Shown here piece by piece: positions 7,305 to 15,457 of a stretch of DNA of 32,000 nt (positions within the stretch are counted from its first letter, which is position 1; the number at the start of each line of letters is the position of its first letter). The stretch spans positions 16,108 through 48,107 of the forward strand of contig DAOUKZ010000058.1 of NCBI GenBank assembly GCA_034420775.1. The letters are read 5' to 3'. Below the pieces are notes generated by a model. The model saw nothing but the letters and a program-made list of their open reading frames with translations. It had not been told where the DNA came from and searched no databases. The translations under genes were made by a program, and so were the position numbers. This DNA comes from Dehalococcoidia bacterium (lineage in GTDB: Bacteria; Chloroflexota; Dehalococcoidia; SHYB01).

Positions 7305-8108
7305 ATGGCTTCGTGGACGGGGAAAGTTGCGTTCGTGACGGGTGCGGGGATGGGGATCGGGCGCGCGACGGCGGTCCGGTTCGCACGGATCGGGGCGAAC
7401 GTGGTGGCGGTCGACGTGGACGACGAGGCCGGGCGCGAGACGATCGGCGAGATCGGCCATGGGGACAGCAAGGCGATCTTCGTCCAGGCCGACGTGTCGT
7501 CGGAGAGCGACGTGGCCGGGGCGGTCGAGAAGGCCGTCTCCACCTTCGGGCGCATCGACCTGCTCCATAACAATGCAGCCATCATGCGCCGGCACGACTC
7601 GCTCGAAGCGTGGCCCATCGAGGAGTTCCGCCGCGTGATCGACGTCAACCTGAACGCGCCCTTCCTGGTGGCCAAGGTGGTCGCGCCGGTGATGCGCGAC
7701 GGCGGGGGCGGCGTCATCATCAACATGTCGTCGCAGGGCGGGCTGGTCTCGGTGCCGTACTCGCCGAGCTACGCCGCGGCGAAGGCGGGCGTGATCTCGC
7801 TCACGCGCACCCTCCCCGACATGCTCCGGGGGACGAACATCCGAGTGAACGCGATCTGCCCCGGCTTCACCGACACGCCCATGACCCGGAACCCGCGGGC
7901 GCGGGCCAACCTGGGGTCCGTGGCGATGGCCCCGATGGACGCCGACGACCTCGCCCGCGCGGTGCAGTACCTCGCCGAGCGCGAGGACCTCGACCGCTTC
8001 ATGATGGTCGTGGCCCGCGACGCTGAAGGCAGGGTCGAGTACCTGCAGGTCCAAGACCCGCCCGCGCAGACCGCCATCGGCTTGGCCGACGACATCGGCC
8101 CCCAATGA
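7305..8108 (+). CDS. Short-chain dehydrogenase/reductase (SDR) 1
   Basis: TGAGMGIGRA glycine-rich NAD(P) motif, NNAA, and the YSPSYAAAK catalytic Yxxx(x)K region. GGGAGG Shine-Dalgarno upstream. Confidence 0.85.
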   Translation: MASWTGKVAFVTGAGMGIGRATAVRFARIGANVVAVDVDDEAGRETIGEIGHGDSKAIFVQADVSSESDVAGAVEKAVSTFGRIDLLHNNAAIMRRHDSLEAWPIEEFRRVIDVNLNAPFLVAKVVAPVMRDGGGGVIINMSSQGGLVSVPYSPSYAAAKAGVISLTRTLPDMLRGTNIRVNAICPGFTDTPMTRNPRARANLGSVAMAPMDADDLARAVQYLAEREDLDRFMMVVARDAEGRVEYLQVQDPPAQTAIGLADDIGPQ

Positions 8109-8893
8109 ACCGCGCCGACGGCAAGGTTGCCATCGTGACCGGGGCCGCCGGCGGCATCGGCCGCGCCTCGGCGCTGCTCTTCGCCGAACGCGGCGCGAAG
8201 GTCGTTGTCGTTGACCTGAAGGAAGAGGAGGGCGCGGAGACCGCTCACATGATCGCCATGAGCGGCGGCGAGGCCATCTTCGCCGCGGCCGACGTCTCCG
8301 ACGTACCCCAGGTGCAGGAGCTGGTGGGCACGGCGCTGACCGCCTACGGGCGGGTCGACTACCTCCACAACAACGCCGCGATCATCGCCCACCACCGCGA
8401 CGTCGACGAGATCGGCGTCGACGAGTGGCGGCGCATCATCGACGTCAACCTGTCTTCGCTTTTCATCTGCTCCAAGGCCGTCATCCCGATGATGCGGACG
8501 CAGGGCGGCGGCGCCATCGTCAACACCTCGTCGGGCGCGGGGGTGGCGGCCTACGGCATCGCCCTCGCCTACTCCGCCGCCAAATTCGGCGTTCTGGGCC
8601 TGACCCAGGGTCTGCAGCAGCTCGTCGAGGGCGACAACATCCGCGTGAACGCGGTGCTGCCGGGCATGACGCGGACGCCGATGCTCGAGGTCTCCGACAC
8701 GGGCCGCGCCGCCCTCCAGAAGCCGGAGATGCTCCTCGACCCCATGGACCTCGCCCGCGCGGTCTTCTACCTCGCGGTCAACGAGGAGATGCGCGCGGCC
8801 CTAGTCTACACGAGCCTGGGCGACGACGGCCCGGTCTACGATCTCGTGCTCCCCAACCAGTACGAACGCCTGAGCGGCGTGGAGGCATTCTGA
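8105..8893 (+). CDS. Short-chain dehydrogenase/reductase (SDR) 2
   Basis: TGAAGGIGRA, NNAA and YSAAK motifs. The start overlaps the SDR1 stop (ATGA). Confidence 0.85.
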   Translation: MNRADGKVAIVTGAAGGIGRASALLFAERGAKVVVVDLKEEEGAETAHMIAMSGGEAIFAAADVSDVPQVQELVGTALTAYGRVDYLHNNAAIIAHHRDVDEIGVDEWRRIIDVNLSSLFICSKAVIPMMRTQGGGAIVNTSSGAGVAAYGIALAYSAAKFGVLGLTQGLQQLVEGDNIRVNAVLPGMTRTPMLEVSDTGRAALQKPEMLLDPMDLARAVFYLAVNEEMRAALVYTSLGDDGPVYDLVLPNQYERLSGVEAF

Positions 8894-9684
8894 TGGGTCA
8901 ACTCGACGGAAAAGCTGCCATCGTCACCGGCGCGGGGTCGGGCATGGGACGCGCCACCGCGGCGCTGCTCGCCTCGGAGGGCGCCAAGGTCGTGGTGGCC
9001 GACGTCGACGAGGCCGGGGCCGCCGAGACGGTCTCCCAGATCGCCGCGGCGGGCGGCGAGGCCGTGGCGGTGGTCGGCGACCACTCGGTGAACAAGGACG
9101 TGCAGGAGGTCGTGGGCACGGCGCTGTCGAACTACGGCGGCGTCGACGCGCTCCACAACAACGCGGGCATCCTGCGCAGCTACGGGAGCATCGAGGAGCA
9201 CCCCGAGGACGTGTGGCGGCGCGTGGTCGACGTGAATCTGACCGGGTACTTCCTGATGTCGCGGGCGGTCCTGCCCCTGATGCGGGCCGGCGGCGGCGCG
9301 ATCGTCAACACGGCCTCGATGGCCGCCATCCATCCCTACGCGCCCGGCCCGGCCTATTCGGCCTCCAAGGCGGGCGTGCTGGGCCTGACCACCGCGTTCG
9401 CCGAGGCCGGGGCCGCCGACGGCGTCCGCGTCAACGCCATCTGCCCCGGCGGCGTCGACACCGCCATCCTGAGGTGGGCCTCGGTGCCCGTCCCCGACGA
9501 CCGCTCCGGCCTCGGCCTCATGGATCCCGGCGACATCGCCCGCCTCGTCCTCTACTTCGTCACCCACCCCGACATCACCGGCCAAGCCATCGCCGCCCGC
9601 AAGATCGACGGCGAGACCCGCTATCACTACGTGGATGTGCTGGTGAGCGAGCGGGAGCTGGTGATCGGTAAGGGGGGCCCCTAG
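8893..9684 (+). CDS. Short-chain dehydrogenase/reductase (SDR) 3
   Basis: The internal ATG at 8893 of ORF 8425..9684 gives MGQLDGKAAIVTGAGSGMGRA. NNAG and YSASK motifs are present. ATGA overlap with the SDR2 stop. The 8425-8892 extension overlaps SDR2 in another frame and is Arg/Pro/Gly-rich. Confidence 0.85.
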   Translation: MGQLDGKAAIVTGAGSGMGRATAALLASEGAKVVVADVDEAGAAETVSQIAAAGGEAVAVVGDHSVNKDVQEVVGTALSNYGGVDALHNNAGILRSYGSIEEHPEDVWRRVVDVNLTGYFLMSRAVLPLMRAGGGAIVNTASMAAIHPYAPGPAYSASKAGVLGLTTAFAEAGAADGVRVNAICPGGVDTAILRWASVPVPDDRSGLGLMDPGDIARLVLYFVTHPDITGQAIAARKIDGETRYHYVDVLVSERELVIGKGGP

Positions 9685-9725
9685 CCCCTTTTCGGGAATA
9701 CCACCATCAACCTAGGAGCGATTCA

Positions 9726-11951
9726 GTGGCACGAGCGTTCGTGACGTATTCACAGAAGGACTCAGAATTCGTGGATAAGTTGGTTACCGACCTTGAGAGT
9801 GCGGGCCAAGCCTTGGTGCTGGATAAACGGGTGATGCTCCCAGGCGATTCGTTGATGAAGATCTTTGAAGAGATCGGCACAGTCGAATTCTTGTTGGCCG
9901 TCTTGTCTCCGGACGCAGTGAAGAGTAACTGGGTGAAGAAGGAACTTGCAGGTGCAGTCATTCGGGAGATCGAAGAGCCGGGCTTCAAAGTCATCCCCAT
10001 TATCAAGGAGGGCTGCCAGCTACCCACAGCATTAAGGCAAGCCATACGCGACAAATACCAGGCCCGCTTTGATGAAAAGGACCACGATGTGGTAACGAGA
10101 GAGATCCTGGAGGCTCTCTCGGCGGCCAATGATCCTCGAATGCTATATTCCGAATCTCAAGGGCCACGTAGTGGCAATCCATTCCGACGTGTCCGCGCTG
10201 AGTATTTTGAGAGCATAAGGACTCTTGCACGATCATATTCGGAACCGGAAGCCGCTCGCTACGAAAGAATAGTGGAAACCAAACCTGTCATTCTTGAAGG
10301 AGGCAGAGGGTCGGGCAAGACGATGACCTTGAAGTCGATGCTCTTGCAAGCCTTGCTTTCTCGCTTCCGCCGACAAACCTTGGATGAGACAAACATCTCC
10401 TACTTTGGCGTATACCTTCGCTTCGTTCCCGGTTCATTCGCCACCCAGTCACAAGCAGTGGAGGAGATCGTTGGGATGGACCGTTGTATCGCTCTATTTA
10501 TGAGCGAAACGATTCTCAAATTAACACATGCGTTGGTAGAAGAACTAAAATCCTGTGCGGACGCAGGCGTTGTCCAAACCAGTAGTAGTCGGGAGCGCCA
10601 ACTCGTTTCGGAGATTACCAACATTGTAAGACCATCAGTTCAGGGCGATCCACAGACAACTGACCTGGAAACTCTGAGCAGGATGTTATCCATAGAAATC
10701 CGGTTTATAACAGACTACGTGAACCGCCAATTGTTCGGAGAAAGCAGCGAATACAAAGGGGTATTCCTCCGTGTTGAAGACCTGAAGCGAATTTGTCATG
10801 CTACGACTAGCATATACCTGGCGAGACCCGAAGCGACAGTCTACTTCCTTTTGGACGAATTCGAAAGCCTGTTGGTTTTTCAGAAAGTAGTGACTAACAG
10901 CATCCTTAAAGCTAGCGAGTCCGGACACTACTCGGTGAAAATCGCGACCAAGAAGGCCGCTTTGGCGACATCTAGTACACTTGAAGCTCAAGAGATCGAA
11001 GAACCTCACGATTACACCTCAGTTGATGTCGACTACAACATTTCCGACTCTCAGGAGCGCCAGAATTACAAAGATCTACTAATCACGATCTGTGAGAACA
11101 GCCTGTCCAACGAAGCCTTCAGCGAAACGAGGATCGACCAGCTTTTGGAACCCCGGCTTGACTGGGACGGACTGAATAGAGAAGAGGTTGACGATGAGAT
11201 AACCAGTGTTTTAGGAGACCGTCCTGTAACGGCCGAGGATCGACACAGACTAGGACATGCTGCCGTCTTTAGGCTGCTTCACCGACAGAGAGGCAAGAGG
11301 AAGCAGTTTGCTGGTTTTGATGACTTGGTTACTCTTTCCTCCGGAATAATCAGGTTATTCTTGGAGCTAGCAGGCTTGTCCTATCACTTTGCAGTACAAG
11401 AGAATATTGACGTGAAGGGAGGACAGCCAATTGGACGCAGCCACCAAACTAGCGCAGCATACGCACTTTCGGATTACTATTTGACGACCATCAGAAGCAA
11501 TGTCGCGACAGTAGGACCTCAGATTCAGCAACTTGTTGTTGACTTGGGAGATATATTTCGAGCGAAGCTGCTCAAACATACCAGCGAGCCAGAAGGGTCG
11601 CGGTTAGCTATCCATGATCCGCATTTGCTAGAAGAGTCGGCCTCCAAAGAGGCTGAGATGGTGCTTACGCAAGCTGTAATCCATTCAATCTTTCAGAACC
11701 CTGAACAACGAGGCGGGATGCGACCAAAGCACCTGACCGACATTCAACCACAGGAGTATATCCTCAACCGGGTCTATAGTCCCAGCCTCGGCATTTCGCC
11801 TCGACCTCGCTGGCGCACGCGAATCAGCACCAAGGACCTGCTTGAACTCATGGATCCAACCCTTCGGCAGAAAACCAAATCTAGATTGACGAGATTGGTT
11901 AGTCGTTCGAGTGCAATGCAATCGGAGTTGCCGCTGGAGGCCGGCTCATGA
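9726..11951 (+). CDS. TIR-domain / P-loop NTPase fusion protein (candidate NADase-type defence effector-sensor)
   Basis: GTG start with AGGAG 7 nt upstream. Residues 1-135 form a TIR domain (AFVTYSQKDSEFVDKL..., LLAVLSPDAVKSNWVKKELAGA, with the conserved Glu at codon 73, nt 9942-9944). Walker A is GGRGSGKT (nt 10299-10322). The Walker B-like element is VYFLLDEFESL (about nt 10845-10865). About 360 further residues have no motif I recognise. Confidence 0.8.
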   Translation: MARAFVTYSQKDSEFVDKLVTDLESAGQALVLDKRVMLPGDSLMKIFEEIGTVEFLLAVLSPDAVKSNWVKKELAGAVIREIEEPGFKVIPIIKEGCQLPTALRQAIRDKYQARFDEKDHDVVTREILEALSAANDPRMLYSESQGPRSGNPFRRVRAEYFESIRTLARSYSEPEAARYERIVETKPVILEGGRGSGKTMTLKSMLLQALLSRFRRQTLDETNISYFGVYLRFVPGSFATQSQAVEEIVGMDRCIALFMSETILKLTHALVEELKSCADAGVVQTSSSRERQLVSEITNIVRPSVQGDPQTTDLETLSRMLSIEIRFITDYVNRQLFGESSEYKGVFLRVEDLKRICHATTSIYLARPEATVYFLLDEFESLLVFQKVVTNSILKASESGHYSVKIATKKAALATSSTLEAQEIEEPHDYTSVDVDYNISDSQERQNYKDLLITICENSLSNEAFSETRIDQLLEPRLDWDGLNREEVDDEITSVLGDRPVTAEDRHRLGHAAVFRLLHRQRGKRKQFAGFDDLVTLSSGIIRLFLELAGLSYHFAVQENIDVKGGQPIGRSHQTSAAYALSDYYLTTIRSNVATVGPQIQQLVVDLGDIFRAKLLKHTSEPEGSRLAIHDPHLLEESASKEAEMVLTQAVIHSIFQNPEQRGGMRPKHLTDIQPQEYILNRVYSPSLGISPRPRWRTRISTKDLLELMDPTLRQKTKSRLTRLVSRSSAMQSELPLEAGS

Positions 11952-12898
11952 CGGTTCGACAGCTGTCTTCACTGGGTCCCGTAGTCGAGGAGCGAGCCGA
12001 GGTGTTCATTGGGTGCGCTAGCTTTGAAGAACGCTGTCTGGGCGGTTTGAGCTTGCTCCCCCCAGCGTACCGTTTCGCCCATAGCTACCTGTGCATCTAT
12101 GACGACTTCAATGAAGCCAGGCAGCCAAATGTCAGGGCTATGACCGAAGTTCTTCAGGGGCATGGGCCATTGAGCACAGTCGAGGCCTCTGAGGAAAATC
12201 CCTCTCGTTCGATCGCCGAGTTGCTAAGTGGCATTCGTGCCCTTGCTGCGCTATCGGAGATCAGAGTCACTTTGGACGCGTCCACCTTCACGAAACGACA
12301 TCTGCTGCTATTGCTGCATGCTTTAGATGATGCTGGACTATGGCGTTCATTGAGGATTCTCTACACTGAACCTAAGGAATACGTTGTTGATATGTACCTG
12401 CCAATGTCCATGGGGATTAAAGAAGTGGCACCTATACCCGGCTTCACGAATGTAAAGCCTCCTGACAAGCCTGTACTTTTAGTGATTATGCTCGGCTATG
12501 AAGGTGATCGGTCGATGGCTCTCTTTCAAACGATTGAACCCAACGAAACAGTGCTTCTGGTGCCGAAACCTGCTTACCGCCCCGAGTGGGAGGGGCGAAC
12601 TGAGGAACTCAATGGACAGCTAGTCTCACTCTTGGGTGAAGATGCTATAGAATACGCCGACTCTCGGGATCCCCTTCAAGTCAAAACGGCCCTCGACAAA
12701 GTGTTGGGCAATCGGTACTCGACAAAGGACTGGACTTGTCTAGTATCGCCGTTGGGAACGAAACCCCAAACAGTCGGCCTCTATGCGTTTTGGCGAGAGA
12801 AGCCTGATTCTTGCGCATTGATATATGCGCAACCACTGAGACACAACGAAAGGTACTACTCCAAAGGTTCAGGCCCGACTTGGGAGTTGGGAATCTGA
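11948..12898 (+). CDS. Hypothetical protein with two tandem Rossmann-like (CARF/SAVED-like?) modules
   Basis: ATGA overlap with the upstream stop. Two internally similar halves each open with a strand-Gly-aromatic-Glu-x-acidic-Arg element (VFIGCASFEERCL and LLVIMLGYEGDRSM). About 85-90 residues later each has a strand followed by a polar-xxx-Lys element (VTLDASTFTKRHLL, which fits the CARF signature [DN]x[ST]xxx[RK], and CLVSPLGTKPQTV). The fold assignment is inference. Confidence 0.55.
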   Translation: MTVRQLSSLGPVVEERAEVFIGCASFEERCLGGLSLLPPAYRFAHSYLCIYDDFNEARQPNVRAMTEVLQGHGPLSTVEASEENPSRSIAELLSGIRALAALSEIRVTLDASTFTKRHLLLLLHALDDAGLWRSLRILYTEPKEYVVDMYLPMSMGIKEVAPIPGFTNVKPPDKPVLLVIMLGYEGDRSMALFQTIEPNETVLLVPKPAYRPEWEGRTEELNGQLVSLLGEDAIEYADSRDPLQVKTALDKVLGNRYSTKDWTCLVSPLGTKPQTVGLYAFWREKPDSCALIYAQPLRHNERYYSKGSGPTWELGI

Positions 12899-14172
12899 TG
12901 AGGAGACGTCAGACCATTGAACCACAATCGATAGACCTAAAGAATCGATCTGATGTGGCGCTTGATCGAATAGCGATGCGACTTCATCAGCTTGACAAGT
13001 ATCCAGCGAAGATGATTCCTCACATGGCCCGGTTTTTGATTGAAAGGGTATCGGAACCGGGCGACACGGTATTGGATCCCTTTTGCGGTACTGGCACGGT
13101 GGTTCGCGAAGCGCTCGCGCTTGGCCGCAATGCTATAGGACTGGATGTGAATCCATTAGCCACACTTTTTACCCATGTGAAGGTTCAGAATTACCACCGC
13201 AAGGCACTAGAGAGACAATTGGCAGAACTGCTGGAGGAATTTAGGAGGCAAAAACCAACCATTGTTTTCGGCTTCCCGAACGCGGAGTACTGGTTTACTC
13301 CAGCGACTCTACGAAAACTAGCGATCATACGGTCTGTAGTGGATCGATTGCCCCAGAAAGTGCCGAGCCCATATCCAGACTTTTGGCGGGCCGTACTGGC
13401 ATCTATTGTGCGCCAAGCGAGTAGAGCAGATAATCGAGGTCCGAAGCCCTTTATTTCGAAAAGAGCGCGCGAGAGGAAGAAGGGGATAAATTGCAATCCA
13501 TTTACATTGTTTGCACGTGCAGGTCAAGCTCGCATTGACCTGCTAGGCTCGAGCGCTGACAAATTCGGCGACAGTCGAGTTGAAGTGATGCACGGTAATG
13601 CCAAGACACTGCCCACTAGCATGAGGACAGTCGGTGTCGATGCAGTTGTGACGTCGCCTCCGTACCTAAACGCTCAGGACTATTATAGGTCGTGCAAACT
13701 AGAACTATGGGTCCTTGGACTCCTTGGAGTAGACGCGAATATGAAGTGGGCCCGTGATGAGATCATAGGGACTGACAGAATGCGCATCGACCATCGACTG
13801 TTCGACCTCCCAATGCCTTCACCCACAAGTGTCGCCGCCCGCGAGAGCCTGGTATCCGCTAATCCCAAGAGCGCATGTATTTTGACGAAATACACCTTAG
13901 ATATGGCGAAGGTACTTTCCCAAATAGAACAAGTGCTGAAGCCAGGAGGGTATTGTGCAGTAGTCTCAGGGGACAACACTCTTTCCGGCATGCCCGTGCA
14001 AACTCACAAGATCATCACGGAACTCGCACTGCACTCGGGCTTCCGATTAACGCATCACTATGTGGACGCCATACGAGATCGGTGGGTACCTCCTTCCCGT
14101 AATGGTCACAACGGAGTGATCCTTGAGGAACATATACAAATCTTCCAAACCCCCTTGTCTATCAGCAGTTAA
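12898..14172 (+). CDS. DNA methyltransferase, N4-cytosine/N6-adenine (amino-MTase) family, motif I before motif IV
   Basis: The ATG at 12898 overlaps the upstream stop (ATGA). The AdoMet-binding block is YPAKMIPHMARFLIERVSEPGDTVLDPFCGTGTVVREALALGRNAIGLDVNP (DPFCGTGT at nt 13075-13098). The catalytic motif IV is VVTSPPYLNAQDY (SPPY at nt 13654-13665). About 185 residues separate the two motifs. The 12811-12897 extension overlaps the previous gene. Confidence 0.8.
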   Translation: MRRRQTIEPQSIDLKNRSDVALDRIAMRLHQLDKYPAKMIPHMARFLIERVSEPGDTVLDPFCGTGTVVREALALGRNAIGLDVNPLATLFTHVKVQNYHRKALERQLAELLEEFRRQKPTIVFGFPNAEYWFTPATLRKLAIIRSVVDRLPQKVPSPYPDFWRAVLASIVRQASRADNRGPKPFISKRARERKKGINCNPFTLFARAGQARIDLLGSSADKFGDSRVEVMHGNAKTLPTSMRTVGVDAVVTSPPYLNAQDYYRSCKLELWVLGLLGVDANMKWARDEIIGTDRMRIDHRLFDLPMPSPTSVAARESLVSANPKSACILTKYTLDMAKVLSQIEQVLKPGGYCAVVSGDNTLSGMPVQTHKIITELALHSGFRLTHHYVDAIRDRWVPPSRNGHNGVILEEHIQIFQTPLSISS

Positions 14173-14230
14173 TGTCGTACCTGGAGAGTTGATAGAGGGC
14201 GCCTGCCATCGCGGCGCGACTTCCCTGATT

Positions 14231-14294: not shown

Positions 14295-14323
14295 TCAGGG
14301 TTGGGAGAGTGGGCGAGCCGGGT

Positions 14324-15457
14324 ATGGCGACGACGAAGCGCGATTACTACGAGGTCCTCGGCGTGGGGCGGGATGTCTCCGAGGACGATCTTCGGAAGGC
14401 CTTCCGCAAGAAGGCGTTCGAGTACCACCCCGACCGCAACAAGGAGCCGGAGGCCGAGGCGAAGTTCAAGGAGTGCGCCGAGGCGTACGAGGTGCTCCGC
14501 GACGGCGAGAAGCGGGCGAAGTACGACCGCTTCGGGCATGCCGGGCCCAACGGCGCCGGCGTCGGGTTCGAGGGGTTCGGCGGCTTCTCGGACATCGGCG
14601 ACATCTTCGACGCCTTCTTCGGCGGCGGGGCCTTCGGCGGGCGGCGGTCGCGGGCGACGGCCGCCGAGCGCGGCGACGACCTCGCGGCCAGCGTCGCGAT
14701 CGAGTTCGAGGAGGCCGCCTTCGGCACGGAGAAGCAGTTCGACTTCTCGCGCCTCGAGACCTGCTCACGCTGCCACGGCGCGCGGTCGGAGCCCGGCACC
14801 AGCACCGCCACCTGCGCCACCTGCAAGGGCCAGGGTCAGGTCCGGCAGTCGCAGCGCAGCATCTTCGGGCAGTTCGTCAACGTCACCACCTGTCCAGCCT
14901 GCCGCGGCGAGGGGACGACGATCTCGAACCCGTGCACCGCGTGCCGGGGCCAGGGCCGGACGCGCAACGAGGCGAACATCGTGGTGAAGATTCCGCCGGG
15001 GATCAGCCACGGCTCGCAGGTGCGGCTGACGTCGCAGGGCGGCGCCGGTCGCAACGGCGGCCCCACCGGCGACCTGTACATCACGGTGCAGGTCAAGGAG
15101 CACGAGATCTTCGACCGCGAGCGCGACGACGTGGTCTACACGCTGCCGCTGAACATCGCGCAGGCCGCGCTCGGCGACGAGCTGGAGATCCCCACCCTCG
15201 GCGGCGAGACGCGGCTCAAGGTCCCGGCGGGGACGCAGCCGGGCCAGATGTTCCGTCTGAAGGGGAAGGGGATCCAGCGGCTGCGGGGCGGCGGTCGGGG
15301 GGACCAGGTCGTCTACGTCGACGTGGTGGTGCCGTCGAAGCTGGACTCGAAGCAGAAGAAGGCGTTTGAGGCGCTGGACGGTCTGCTCAAGAAGCCCGAC
15401 CTGACCCACAAGCAGGACAAGTCGATCTTCGACCGGATCAGGGATACGCTGGGGTAG
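14324..15457 (+). CDS. dnaJ: Molecular chaperone DnaJ (type I Hsp40)
   Basis: J domain (DYYEVLGV...YHPDRN), a G/F-rich linker, and four Cys-pair zinc-finger motifs ([30 protein letters not shown]). I chose ATG 14324 (MATTKRDYY) over the GTG at 14309. Confidence 0.95.

Follow-up and report, generated by a model that had tools for sequence, protein, structure and literature searches.

What is a TIR domain doing at the head of a protein whose two ATP-binding motifs lie unusually far apart, and does such a protein act alone? The question is raised by a gene (gene 1) in a 32,000-nucleotide stretch of DNA from a Dehalococcoidia bacterium (contig DAOUKZ010000058.1, positions 16,108 to 48,107), which we refer to in full as the window. 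An earlier note, made from the letters of this DNA, described the gene 1 protein as a TIR-nucleoside triphosphatase (NTPase) fusion but overlooked the operon in which the gene stands; gene 1 is in fact the first of a conserved three-gene cassette, the other members of which encode a two-lobed CARF-like protein (gene 2) and a DNA methyltransferase (gene 3). Seen in this context, gene 1 no longer reads as encoding a TIR-NTPase sensor that stands alone but as encoding one subunit of a system linked to methylation. Arguing by analogy with systems described below, we favor, with slightly better than even confidence, the reading that gene 1 would be the sensor-effector subunit of a horizontally transferred, methylation-keyed three-gene defence cassette. 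The cassette as a whole is probably an uncharacterised methylation-keyed anti-phage system.

The three genes are translationally coupled; ATGA at 11948-11951 joins genes 1 and 2, and TGATG at 12896-12900 joins genes 2 and 3, the start of gene 3 being taken from a gene call on the same contig and from the sequence. They were acquired horizontally and form an island of ~4.5 kb with ~51% GC in the composition profile versus 68% in the flanks. No flanking direct repeats, tRNA gene or integrase were found at the island edges. In most hosts the cassette is likewise lower in GC than its flanks. Gene 1 is not a chance open reading frame (ORF) because its product has homologues in 96 clusters (top E = 0, with PF24389 in all of them) and carries invariant motif residues.

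Evidence that these genes belong together comes from other genomes. In 73 non-redundant loci, which we assembled by looking up gene contexts and by scanning 185,579 reference genomes, gene 2 comes after the ATPase gene in 72 and a methyltransferase adjoins this two-gene core in 67. The six loci without an adjoining methyltransferase include two that lie at contig ends (L044 and L051) and one in which an Ssp module holds that position (L047). The pair of ATPase and CARF-like protein is a near-obligate core, present in both bacteria and archaea, and the families that recur around it are limited to the ATPase, gene 2, PRTase-CE, methyltransferases, ThyX and dUTPase. For the ATPase family itself, at 50% clustering, 653 representatives were recovered at E <= 1e-30 and 1,608 at E <= 1e-10 out of 1.84 billion.

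Around this core the effector is interchangeable. A fused TIR domain is seen in the versions from Chloroflexota, Acidobacteriota, Methanoregula, Bathyarchaeia, Methanomassiliicoccales and Nitrosopumilaceae. In the versions without TIR, which come from Bacteroidota, Clostridia and Gammaproteobacteria, a PRTase-CE gene (PF24390) stands directly upstream. The TIR domain may be fused at the N-terminus, as in gene 1, or at the C-terminus, as in P0280, and PRTase-CE may be a separate protein or fused to the ATPase, as in L052; PRTase-CE matches the effector PRTase of type III-A retrons (PADLOC PRTase_III-A, 4e-26). The modification enzyme is interchangeable as well, being drawn from three methyltransferase families in which catalytic motif IV is intact throughout (68 of 68 cassette methyltransferases; SPPY 15/15, NPP[FY] 44/44 and SPPF 9/9). 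Gene 3 matches Pfam N6_N4_Mtase (2e-18) as well as the PADLOC models MTase_II (1e-40) and mad2 (6e-16) and is, judging from these motifs and profiles, a catalytically intact DNA methyltransferase.

A compact cassette of foreign composition that turns up in unrelated genomic contexts, and in which a toxin (TIR) is joined to an antidote (methyltransferase), could also be selfish. Loss of the cassette would then dilute methylation and residual TIR-ATPase would kill the cell, as in the post-segregational killing of restriction-modification (R-M) systems, defence being incidental. We consider this improbable as the explanation of the cassette. Our searches gave no phage match and six weak matches on plasmids, annotated 'hypothetical protein', and this rarity on plasmids and absence from phages speak against it; addiction would also be a corollary of the favored model and not a separate mechanism.

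As to the gene 1 protein, the fusion claimed in the earlier note holds, with matches to Pfam TIR_2 (E = 3e-15, residues 5-116) and, from residue 151 onwards, to PF24389 "ORC-CDC6-like" (E = 4e-71; 240.9 bits against a cut-off of 27). The TIR domain had been assigned to about the first 135 residues and its fold ends at about residue 131 in an AlphaFold2 (AF2) model. Walker A and Walker B had been placed at about residues 192 and 372, some 180 residues apart, and lie where expected; Walker A spans residues 192-199, VYFLLDEFESL corresponds to residues 372-382, and K198 is 179 residues from D377. In a conservation alignment of 43 family members with identity down to 21%, N151, P152, F153, G192, R194, G195, G197, K198 and D377 are invariant and E378 is retained in at least 90%. 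The DEFE element is a genuine Walker B, as proposed, with D377/E378 at the end of strand 371-377. Since the distance between the two motifs is 168-221 residues in all 43 aligned members, the long spacing characterises the family and is no oddity of the gene 1 protein.

The AF2 model (pLDDT 86.8, pTM 0.84, built on the 43-homologue alignment) accounts for this spacing. In an alpha/beta core, strand 1 bears Walker A and strand 3 the hhhhDE-type Walker B, and the two motifs are far apart because a helical insert of ~120 residues lies between strand 2 and strand 3. Of the two explanations that had been offered, an inserted domain stands, in the form of four helices, and an ABC/OLD-like architecture falls in view of the PF24389 match and of Foldseek matches to Orc1/Cdc6. 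[quoted passage not shown] The insert of gene 1 is far above the canonical size for this clade and is the fastest-evolving part of the protein (mean pairwise identity 27% vs ~50% in the core); the family provides a natural case of extreme enlargement of an initiator-specific insert in an AAA+ ATPase.

Two further elements were read differently before. The NPF element, previously regarded as part of a linker, belongs to the ATPase module; NPFRRVRAE is kept without change, TIR-less relatives included, and the PF24389 match begins with it. Residues 400-741 had been taken for a region with no nameable motif that could be the sensor or DNA-binding part, but they belong to part of the same PF24389 module because the profile (571 positions) covers the equivalent region of relatives in one stretch (e.g. 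residues 204-758 of P0297). Within this region the helical lid carries an invariant LSSGxxR, which we take to resemble the sensor-2 GDAR motif of Cdc6/Orc1. The last part, residues 561-741, is possibly winged-helix-like.

The ATPase of gene 1 belongs with the AAA+ proteins of the ORC/Cdc6 clade. The route suggested earlier for classifying the NTPase, structure prediction followed by Foldseek, supports this assignment; matches in the PDB include Orc1 (7jgr_A, 7e-5; 7tjf_A, 3e-4; 5zr1_A, 4e-4) and archaeal Cdc6/Orc1 (2qby_A, 2e-3, TMt 0.41), the TM scores being modest because whole chains were aligned. PDB profile searches with gene 1 returned TIR domains only and no solved sequence relative of the ATPase. 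Other Foldseek matches were to RdrA, to NtrC-type AAA+ proteins and to the TIR-NLR protein RPP1. PADLOC mad8 was weakly matched by the ATPase (2e-4, residues 183-388). Assignment to the ABC/OLD ATPases was rejected, as no ABC, OLD or Toprim profile matched in Pfam, PADLOC or NCBIfam (E <= 1 for ABC and OLD) and no ABC or OLD structure appeared among the 50 Foldseek matches listed. A KAP NTPase was rejected likewise, there being no KAP profile match at E <= 1 and the insert being built, in a confident model, from soluble amphipathic helices.

RPP1 heads the Foldseek list (E = 4.5e-7), and the layout of TIR, NTPase and C-terminal region is that of a receptor of the NLR/Avs kind, in which the C-terminal half would bind a phage protein, oligomerisation would proceed in STAND fashion, the TIR domain would fire and the neighbouring genes would be unrelated. 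We find this highly improbable. The RPP1 alignment is a whole-chain one with a TM score of 0.22-0.29 that is lifted by the common TIR domain, and a weak PADLOC TIR-NLR match (8.8e-5), which might also be cited for a receptor, is confined to residues 1-95, that is, to the TIR domain. In agreement with the earlier note, which saw no NACHT or NB-ARC signatures, comparison with Pfam, PADLOC and NCBIfam gave no match at E <= 1 to a NACHT, NB-ARC, Avs or bNACHT profile. The C-terminus is repeat-free and conserved in the family (44% mean identity), unlike the hypervariable sensors, and we rejected a place in the STAND/Avs/bNACHT group on these grounds. The constancy with which gene 2 follows the ATPase also speaks against neighbours that are unrelated.

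The clade to which the ATPase belongs might equally suggest a role outside defence, as an ORC/Cdc6-like protein that initiates replication or maintains DNA for an integrated element and is accompanied by an orphan methyltransferase. This is the reading that we can least credit. The ATPase is fused to or paired with toxic effector classes (TIR and retron-type PRTase), neither origin-like repeats nor an integrase or further element genes are present in the island, and defence genes lie beside other loci, among them genes for a type IIG R-M enzyme, for SspC and for a retron HEAT-ARM protein.

Returning to the favored reading, a defence cassette with gene 1 as its sensor-effector subunit, the TIR domain looks catalytically competent and of the NADase type, to judge from its alignment. 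The closest TIR domain in the PDB to the family profile is that of Cat1, a CARF-TIR fusion (E = 2e-14). In the profile alignment T7-Y8-S9-Q10 of gene 1 fall on S7-H8-N9-N10 of Cat1, D33 on D33, S67 on S68 and E73 on E74. There is experimental precedent for the importance of these positions as N10A, D33A, S68A and E74A each abolish the toxicity of Cat1 and the residues line its NADase site, which is formed between two stacked TIR domains so that activity needs multimerisation (PMC12162218). The active site, whose loss would have spoken against the earlier description, is intact on alignment to Cat1 (E73, S67 and D33), and E73 is retained together with a W-x-x-K-E-L motif in most homologues; in a divergent subgroup (P0075-P0083) the motif is altered. 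Further matches at the level of the TIR domain were to PADLOC RT-TIR_XII (1e-3), NCBIfam Retron_TIR (9e-8), ThsB (0.011) and ThcB4 (0.0017).

The product of gene 2 fits the CARF superfamily by fold, signature and PADLOC profile. PADLOC CARF6 models match it over its full length (E 6e-32 to 7e-15). In its AF2 model (pLDDT 92.8) two Rossmann-like lobes (residues 17-162 and 176-314) each follow the order b-a-b-a-b-a-b-a-b-b, and Foldseek pairs the protein with the CARF domains of Cam1, Csm6, Can2 and Csa3 (probability 1.0, ~145 residues, TMt 0.5-0.58). The CARF signature consists of a serine or threonine at the end of strand 1 and [DN]X[ST]XXX[RK] after strand 4 (PMC4012209). Lobe 1 displays both parts, S25 being present in 36 of 40 sequences and D110 and K116 of the element D110-A-S112-T-F-T-K116 in all 40. 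When 73 sequences are compared, all of them have K/R272 after strand 4 of lobe 2 and also share many other pocket-like residues; K116, Q274 and E219 switch with the type of effector, K116 being replaced by H or N in PRTase-type relatives. One homologue has a faint precomputed match to CARF_Card1. No match to gene 2 was found in Pfam-A or in PDB profile searches, no viral structural relative was found, and none of the 360 proteins collected is an ATPase-gene 2 fusion of the "Rosetta stone" kind. An origin of the two lobes by tandem duplication was considered and dropped; it has no sequence support (hhalign probability 0.9%), and the topology alone is common.

A CARF-like protein with these features could do more than assist an ATPase. 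One possibility is that it is a SAVED-like pair of Rossmann lobes which senses a nucleotide-derived signal, either an infection alarmone or something made by TIR or PRTase-CE, and which gates, or else amplifies, the oligomerisation of the ATPase and the firing of the effector; the methyltransferase would be secondary, serving protection or addiction. The fold and signature described above fit such a role, and so do the universal K/R272 and pocket residues, while variation of K116, Q274 and E219 with the effector is as expected for a ligand that is in part effector-specific. TIR and PRTase both act on ribosyl-nucleotide bonds, and the TIR domain finds its top PDB sequence match in a protein, Cat1, that is itself a fusion with CARF. 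There is also precedent for an AAA+ family of this P-loop-arginine type fused to CARF and winged helix-turn-helix (wHTH) domains (PMC4012209). We nevertheless judge signal gating to be unlikely as the principal mode of action, for the following reasons: (i) no Cas10, CD-NTase or mCpol-type cyclase recurs in the 73 neighbourhoods, so that a link to a cyclic-oligonucleotide synthase is missing; (ii) the gene 2 protein itself lacks an output domain; (iii) the near-constant, active DNA methyltransferase would be left unexplained; and (iv) the two lobes have no detectable sequence similarity to each other. It should be said that gating of this kind is compatible with the model that we favor.

In the favored model, for which BREX and MANTIS serve as the analogies, the ATPase and its CARF-like partner would act with the methyltransferase to mark host DNA, and the complex would recognise unmodified sites in incoming DNA. 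ATP-dependent oligomerisation on the unmodified DNA would then gather TIR domains into a composite NADase site, and the ensuing depletion of NAD+ would arrest or kill the infected cell (abortive infection). The helical insert would be the likeliest element to contact DNA or a partner and thereby confer specificity, as it has the same position as the initiator-specific motif with which ORC, Cdc6 and DnaA contact DNA.

There is mechanistic precedent for this scheme. In MANTIS (formerly Gao_RL; BREX-related type 2), MtsA, an ORC/Cdc6 AAA+ protein, acts with MtsB to load MtsC, the methyltransferase, and the effector MtsD is then triggered when MtsABC recognises DNA (10.64898/2026.09.23.753747). 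An ORC/Cdc6-clade ATPase, a small obligatory co-regulator, a methyltransferase and a toxic effector are common to MANTIS and the cassette, with methylation as the mark of self. However, the effector is a PLD-nuclease/helicase in MANTIS and a TIR NADase fused to the ATPase (or PRTase-CE) here, the partner is a DUF3870 protein there and a CARF-like protein of 316 residues here, and the ATPases fall under DUF499 and PF24389, respectively. The BREX core includes an ORC/Cdc6-clade ATPase with a strand 2 insert, a helical bundle and a wHTH, together with a methyltransferase for self/non-self discrimination (PMC12839542). The cassette resembles BREX (BrxC/PglY, PglX, PglZ) in pairing a central ATPase of this clade with a methyltransferase, but it has only three genes, none of them PglZ, BrxA, BrxB or BrxL, and its effector is a TIR domain; the published BREX survey mentions TIR and PRTase zero times (PMC12839542). 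Membership in either system was rejected, as the three-gene island gave no PADLOC BrxC or Pfam DUF499 match and holds no PglZ, MtsB or MtsD. Because no profile similarity of the BrxC/DUF499 type is detectable, the analogy applies at the level of the clade only. By that analogy the cassette would be a methylation-linked defence built on an ORC/Cdc6-type ATPase, working like BREX or MANTIS and belonging to neither.

Several points weigh against this model. The mechanism rests on analogy, and a comparison of the ATPase with a BrxC/SspC-type ATPase gave an hhalign probability of 0.2%, a weak test in that the template was a single sequence. Three loci (L016, L018 and L019) have no methyltransferase, though L019 looks decayed. 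The conserved ligand-pocket-like residues of the CARF-like protein would not be explained by a pure co-regulator role, and since they are retained there is room for a nucleotide ligand. TIR domains, for their part, can produce signalling nucleotides as well as deplete NAD+.

In a bolder proposal the cassette would represent a distinct, unnamed class of immunity that joins epigenetic self-marking in the style of R-M to nucleotide-centred abortive infection. A separate ORC/Cdc6-like ATPase lineage with a P-loop arginine and a giant insert after strand 2 would read DNA modification, a two-lobed, cyclase-independent CARF-like protein would bind a nucleotide and so license or amplify the response, and TIR or PRTase-CE, as interchangeable enzymes acting on ribosyl bonds, would execute it. 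We offer this tentatively and would not be surprised to see it fail. If it were true, the cassette would hold the first CARF-type sensor that lies outside cyclic-oligonucleotide signalling and inside a methylation-based system.

Comparison with other systems also helps to define what the cassette is not, and it is set apart from Thoeris, Avs and MADS. Cat1 has the closest solved TIR domain, with the same active-site residues and a NADase site that depends on multimerisation, and there too CARF and TIR work together. Unlike Cat1, the cassette has a CARF protein that is separate and two-lobed, an AAA+ ATPase interposed between the two functions and a methyltransferase, and it is without type III CRISPR or a cyclic-oligoadenylate synthase. 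The TIR-STAND and NLR proteins (RPP1, ROQ1, Avs, bNACHT and PADLOC TIR-NLR) are alike in combining an N-terminal TIR domain, presumably activated by proximity, with an oligomerising P-loop NTPase, but the NTPase here is an ORC/Cdc6 AAA+ protein, there is no repeat-type sensor, and CARF-like and methyltransferase partners are obligate. Retrons (PRTase in type III-A, RT-TIR in type XII) have only the effector domains, PRTase-CE and TIR, in common with the cassette, which has no reverse transcriptase or multicopy single-stranded DNA (msDNA). MADS is described as an eight-gene system. It is similarly linked to methylation, and its mad8 and mad2 models are weakly matched by the ATPase and the methyltransferase, but no other mad components accompany the cassette and the NCBIfam MADS2 match is negligible (0.24). 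Thoeris was rejected, as the matches are weak and at the level of the TIR domain only and the island has no ThsA-like gene (SIR2/SLOG or Macro).

Parts of the cassette have been catalogued already, as PF24389 and PF24390 in Pfam and as the CARF6 models of PADLOC, and annotated relatives of the ATPase are called "hypothetical protein". A system-level model of it is absent from both PADLOC 2.0 and NCBIfam (June 2026). In the literature that we searched we found no account of the cassette, and Kaur et al. 2020 (eLife) do not mention it; the neighbourhood may already have been predicted computationally in earlier surveys of CARF proteins or of defence.

Methylation-based defences (R-M, BREX, DISARM, MADS and MANTIS) are known to end in DNA cleavage or a block to replication, and in TIR systems (Thoeris, CBASS, type III CRISPR, Avs and retrons) the trigger is a protein, RNA or a second messenger. 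If the favored model is true, the cassette would wire self/non-self discrimination to abortive infection in a new way, with an ORC/Cdc6-type ATPase and a methyltransferase feeding a TIR NADase or a PRTase, and CARF-like domains would gain a role outside cyclic-oligoadenylate signalling. The cassette is compact (three genes, 4.5 kb) and is found in bacteria and archaea, and the clear predictions for point mutants make it directly testable. The features of the island and of gene 1 are collected in Table 1.

Table 1. Features of the island, its three genes and the gene 1 protein (positions are those of the window; residues are those of the gene 1 protein unless a gene is named; AF2 marks features taken from the model).
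Feature	Position	Strand	Residues	Remarks
Low-GC island	9685-14175			Holds exactly three co-directional genes; between a short-chain dehydrogenase gene and dnaJ
Shine-Dalgarno AGGAG	9714-9718	+		7 nt 5' of the gene 1 GTG; read in the sequence
Gene 1, TIR-ATPase	9726-11951	+	741 in all	GTG start
TIR domain	9726-10118	+	1-131	Putative NADase site T7-Y8-S9-Q10, D33, S67, E73
NPFRRVRAE motif	10176-10202	+	151-159	N151, P152, F153 and E159 invariant, TIR-less relatives included
Strand 1			188-192	AF2; P-loop and helix from 192
Walker A, GGRGSGKT	10299-10322	+	192-199	Invariant columns; P-loop after strand 188-192; invariant R194 inside
Strand 2			226-232	AF2
Helical insertion	10452-10817	+	243-364	AF2; helices 251-279, 287-301, 314-336, 350-364
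Strand 3			371-377	AF2; D377 at its end
Walker B strand, TVYFLLDE	10836-10859	+	371-378	D377 invariant, E378 in at least 90%; strand 371-377 in the model
Strand 4			402-409	AF2
Strand 5			431-434	AF2
Helical lid			442-560	AF2
LSSGIIR	11334-11354	+	537-543	Sensor-2-like, in the helical lid; S538, S539 and R543 invariant
C-terminal alpha/beta region	11406-11948	+	561-741	AF2; helices and three short strands; elements of the model run over residues 561-726
Gene 2, two-lobed CARF-like protein	11948-12898	+	316 in all	Start overlaps the gene 1 stop
Gene 3, DNA methyltransferase	12898-14172	+	424 in all	N6_N4_Mtase family, SPPY; start overlaps the gene 2 stop

Among the loci that depart from the usual layout, L047:2482-11889, from a Spirochaetia metagenome-assembled genome, has PRTase-CE, ATPase and CARF-like genes followed by DUF4007, SspC (PADLOC E = 0) and PAPS reductase. 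This Ssp phosphorothioation module in the methyltransferase slot could represent a swap of the modification module or merely an adjacent Ssp system. In L019:7079-10256 (Nitrosopumilaceae) the TIR-ATPase is split into two ORFs and there is no methyltransferase, giving the appearance of a decaying copy, and L016:163-2352 (Nitrospinota) is a solo TIR-ATPase beside an RHS-repeat gene, with neither a CARF-like gene nor a methyltransferase.

An extra gene pair was seen between the CARF-like gene and the methyltransferase in L026:9855-12420 and L043, and downstream of the methyltransferase in L048; it encodes a 570-residue protein with a PF24389-like P-loop start, an nSTAND3 match and a zinc ribbon, and a 282-residue protein without a Pfam match. 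A gene for a thymidylate synthase of the ThyX type (PF02511) lies right beside the cassette in seven loci (L005, L015, L024, L036, L037, L064 and L074) and one for dUTPase in three (L036, L039 and L050), several of the hosts being unrelated. These recurring neighbours may point to the nucleotide pool or to base modification.

Unusual layouts were also observed in single members of the ATPase family. Besides its C-terminal TIR domain, P0280 has an unannotated N-terminus of ~210 residues; P0285 and P0284 carry C-terminal extensions of ~330 and ~160 residues, and P0297 and P0340 carry N-terminal extensions of ~200 residues with no Pfam match. The variant layouts of these five proteins may represent further effector types. 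P0096 (938 residues) combines ParA/MinD-type P-loop domains (PF10609, PF01656 and PF13614) with PF24389.

In the window, three consecutive short-chain dehydrogenase/reductase paralogues precede the island on the + strand (7305-8108, 8105-8893 and a third ending at 9684), and dnaJ (14309-15457) follows directly downstream, so that the island interrupts an ordinary housekeeping context.

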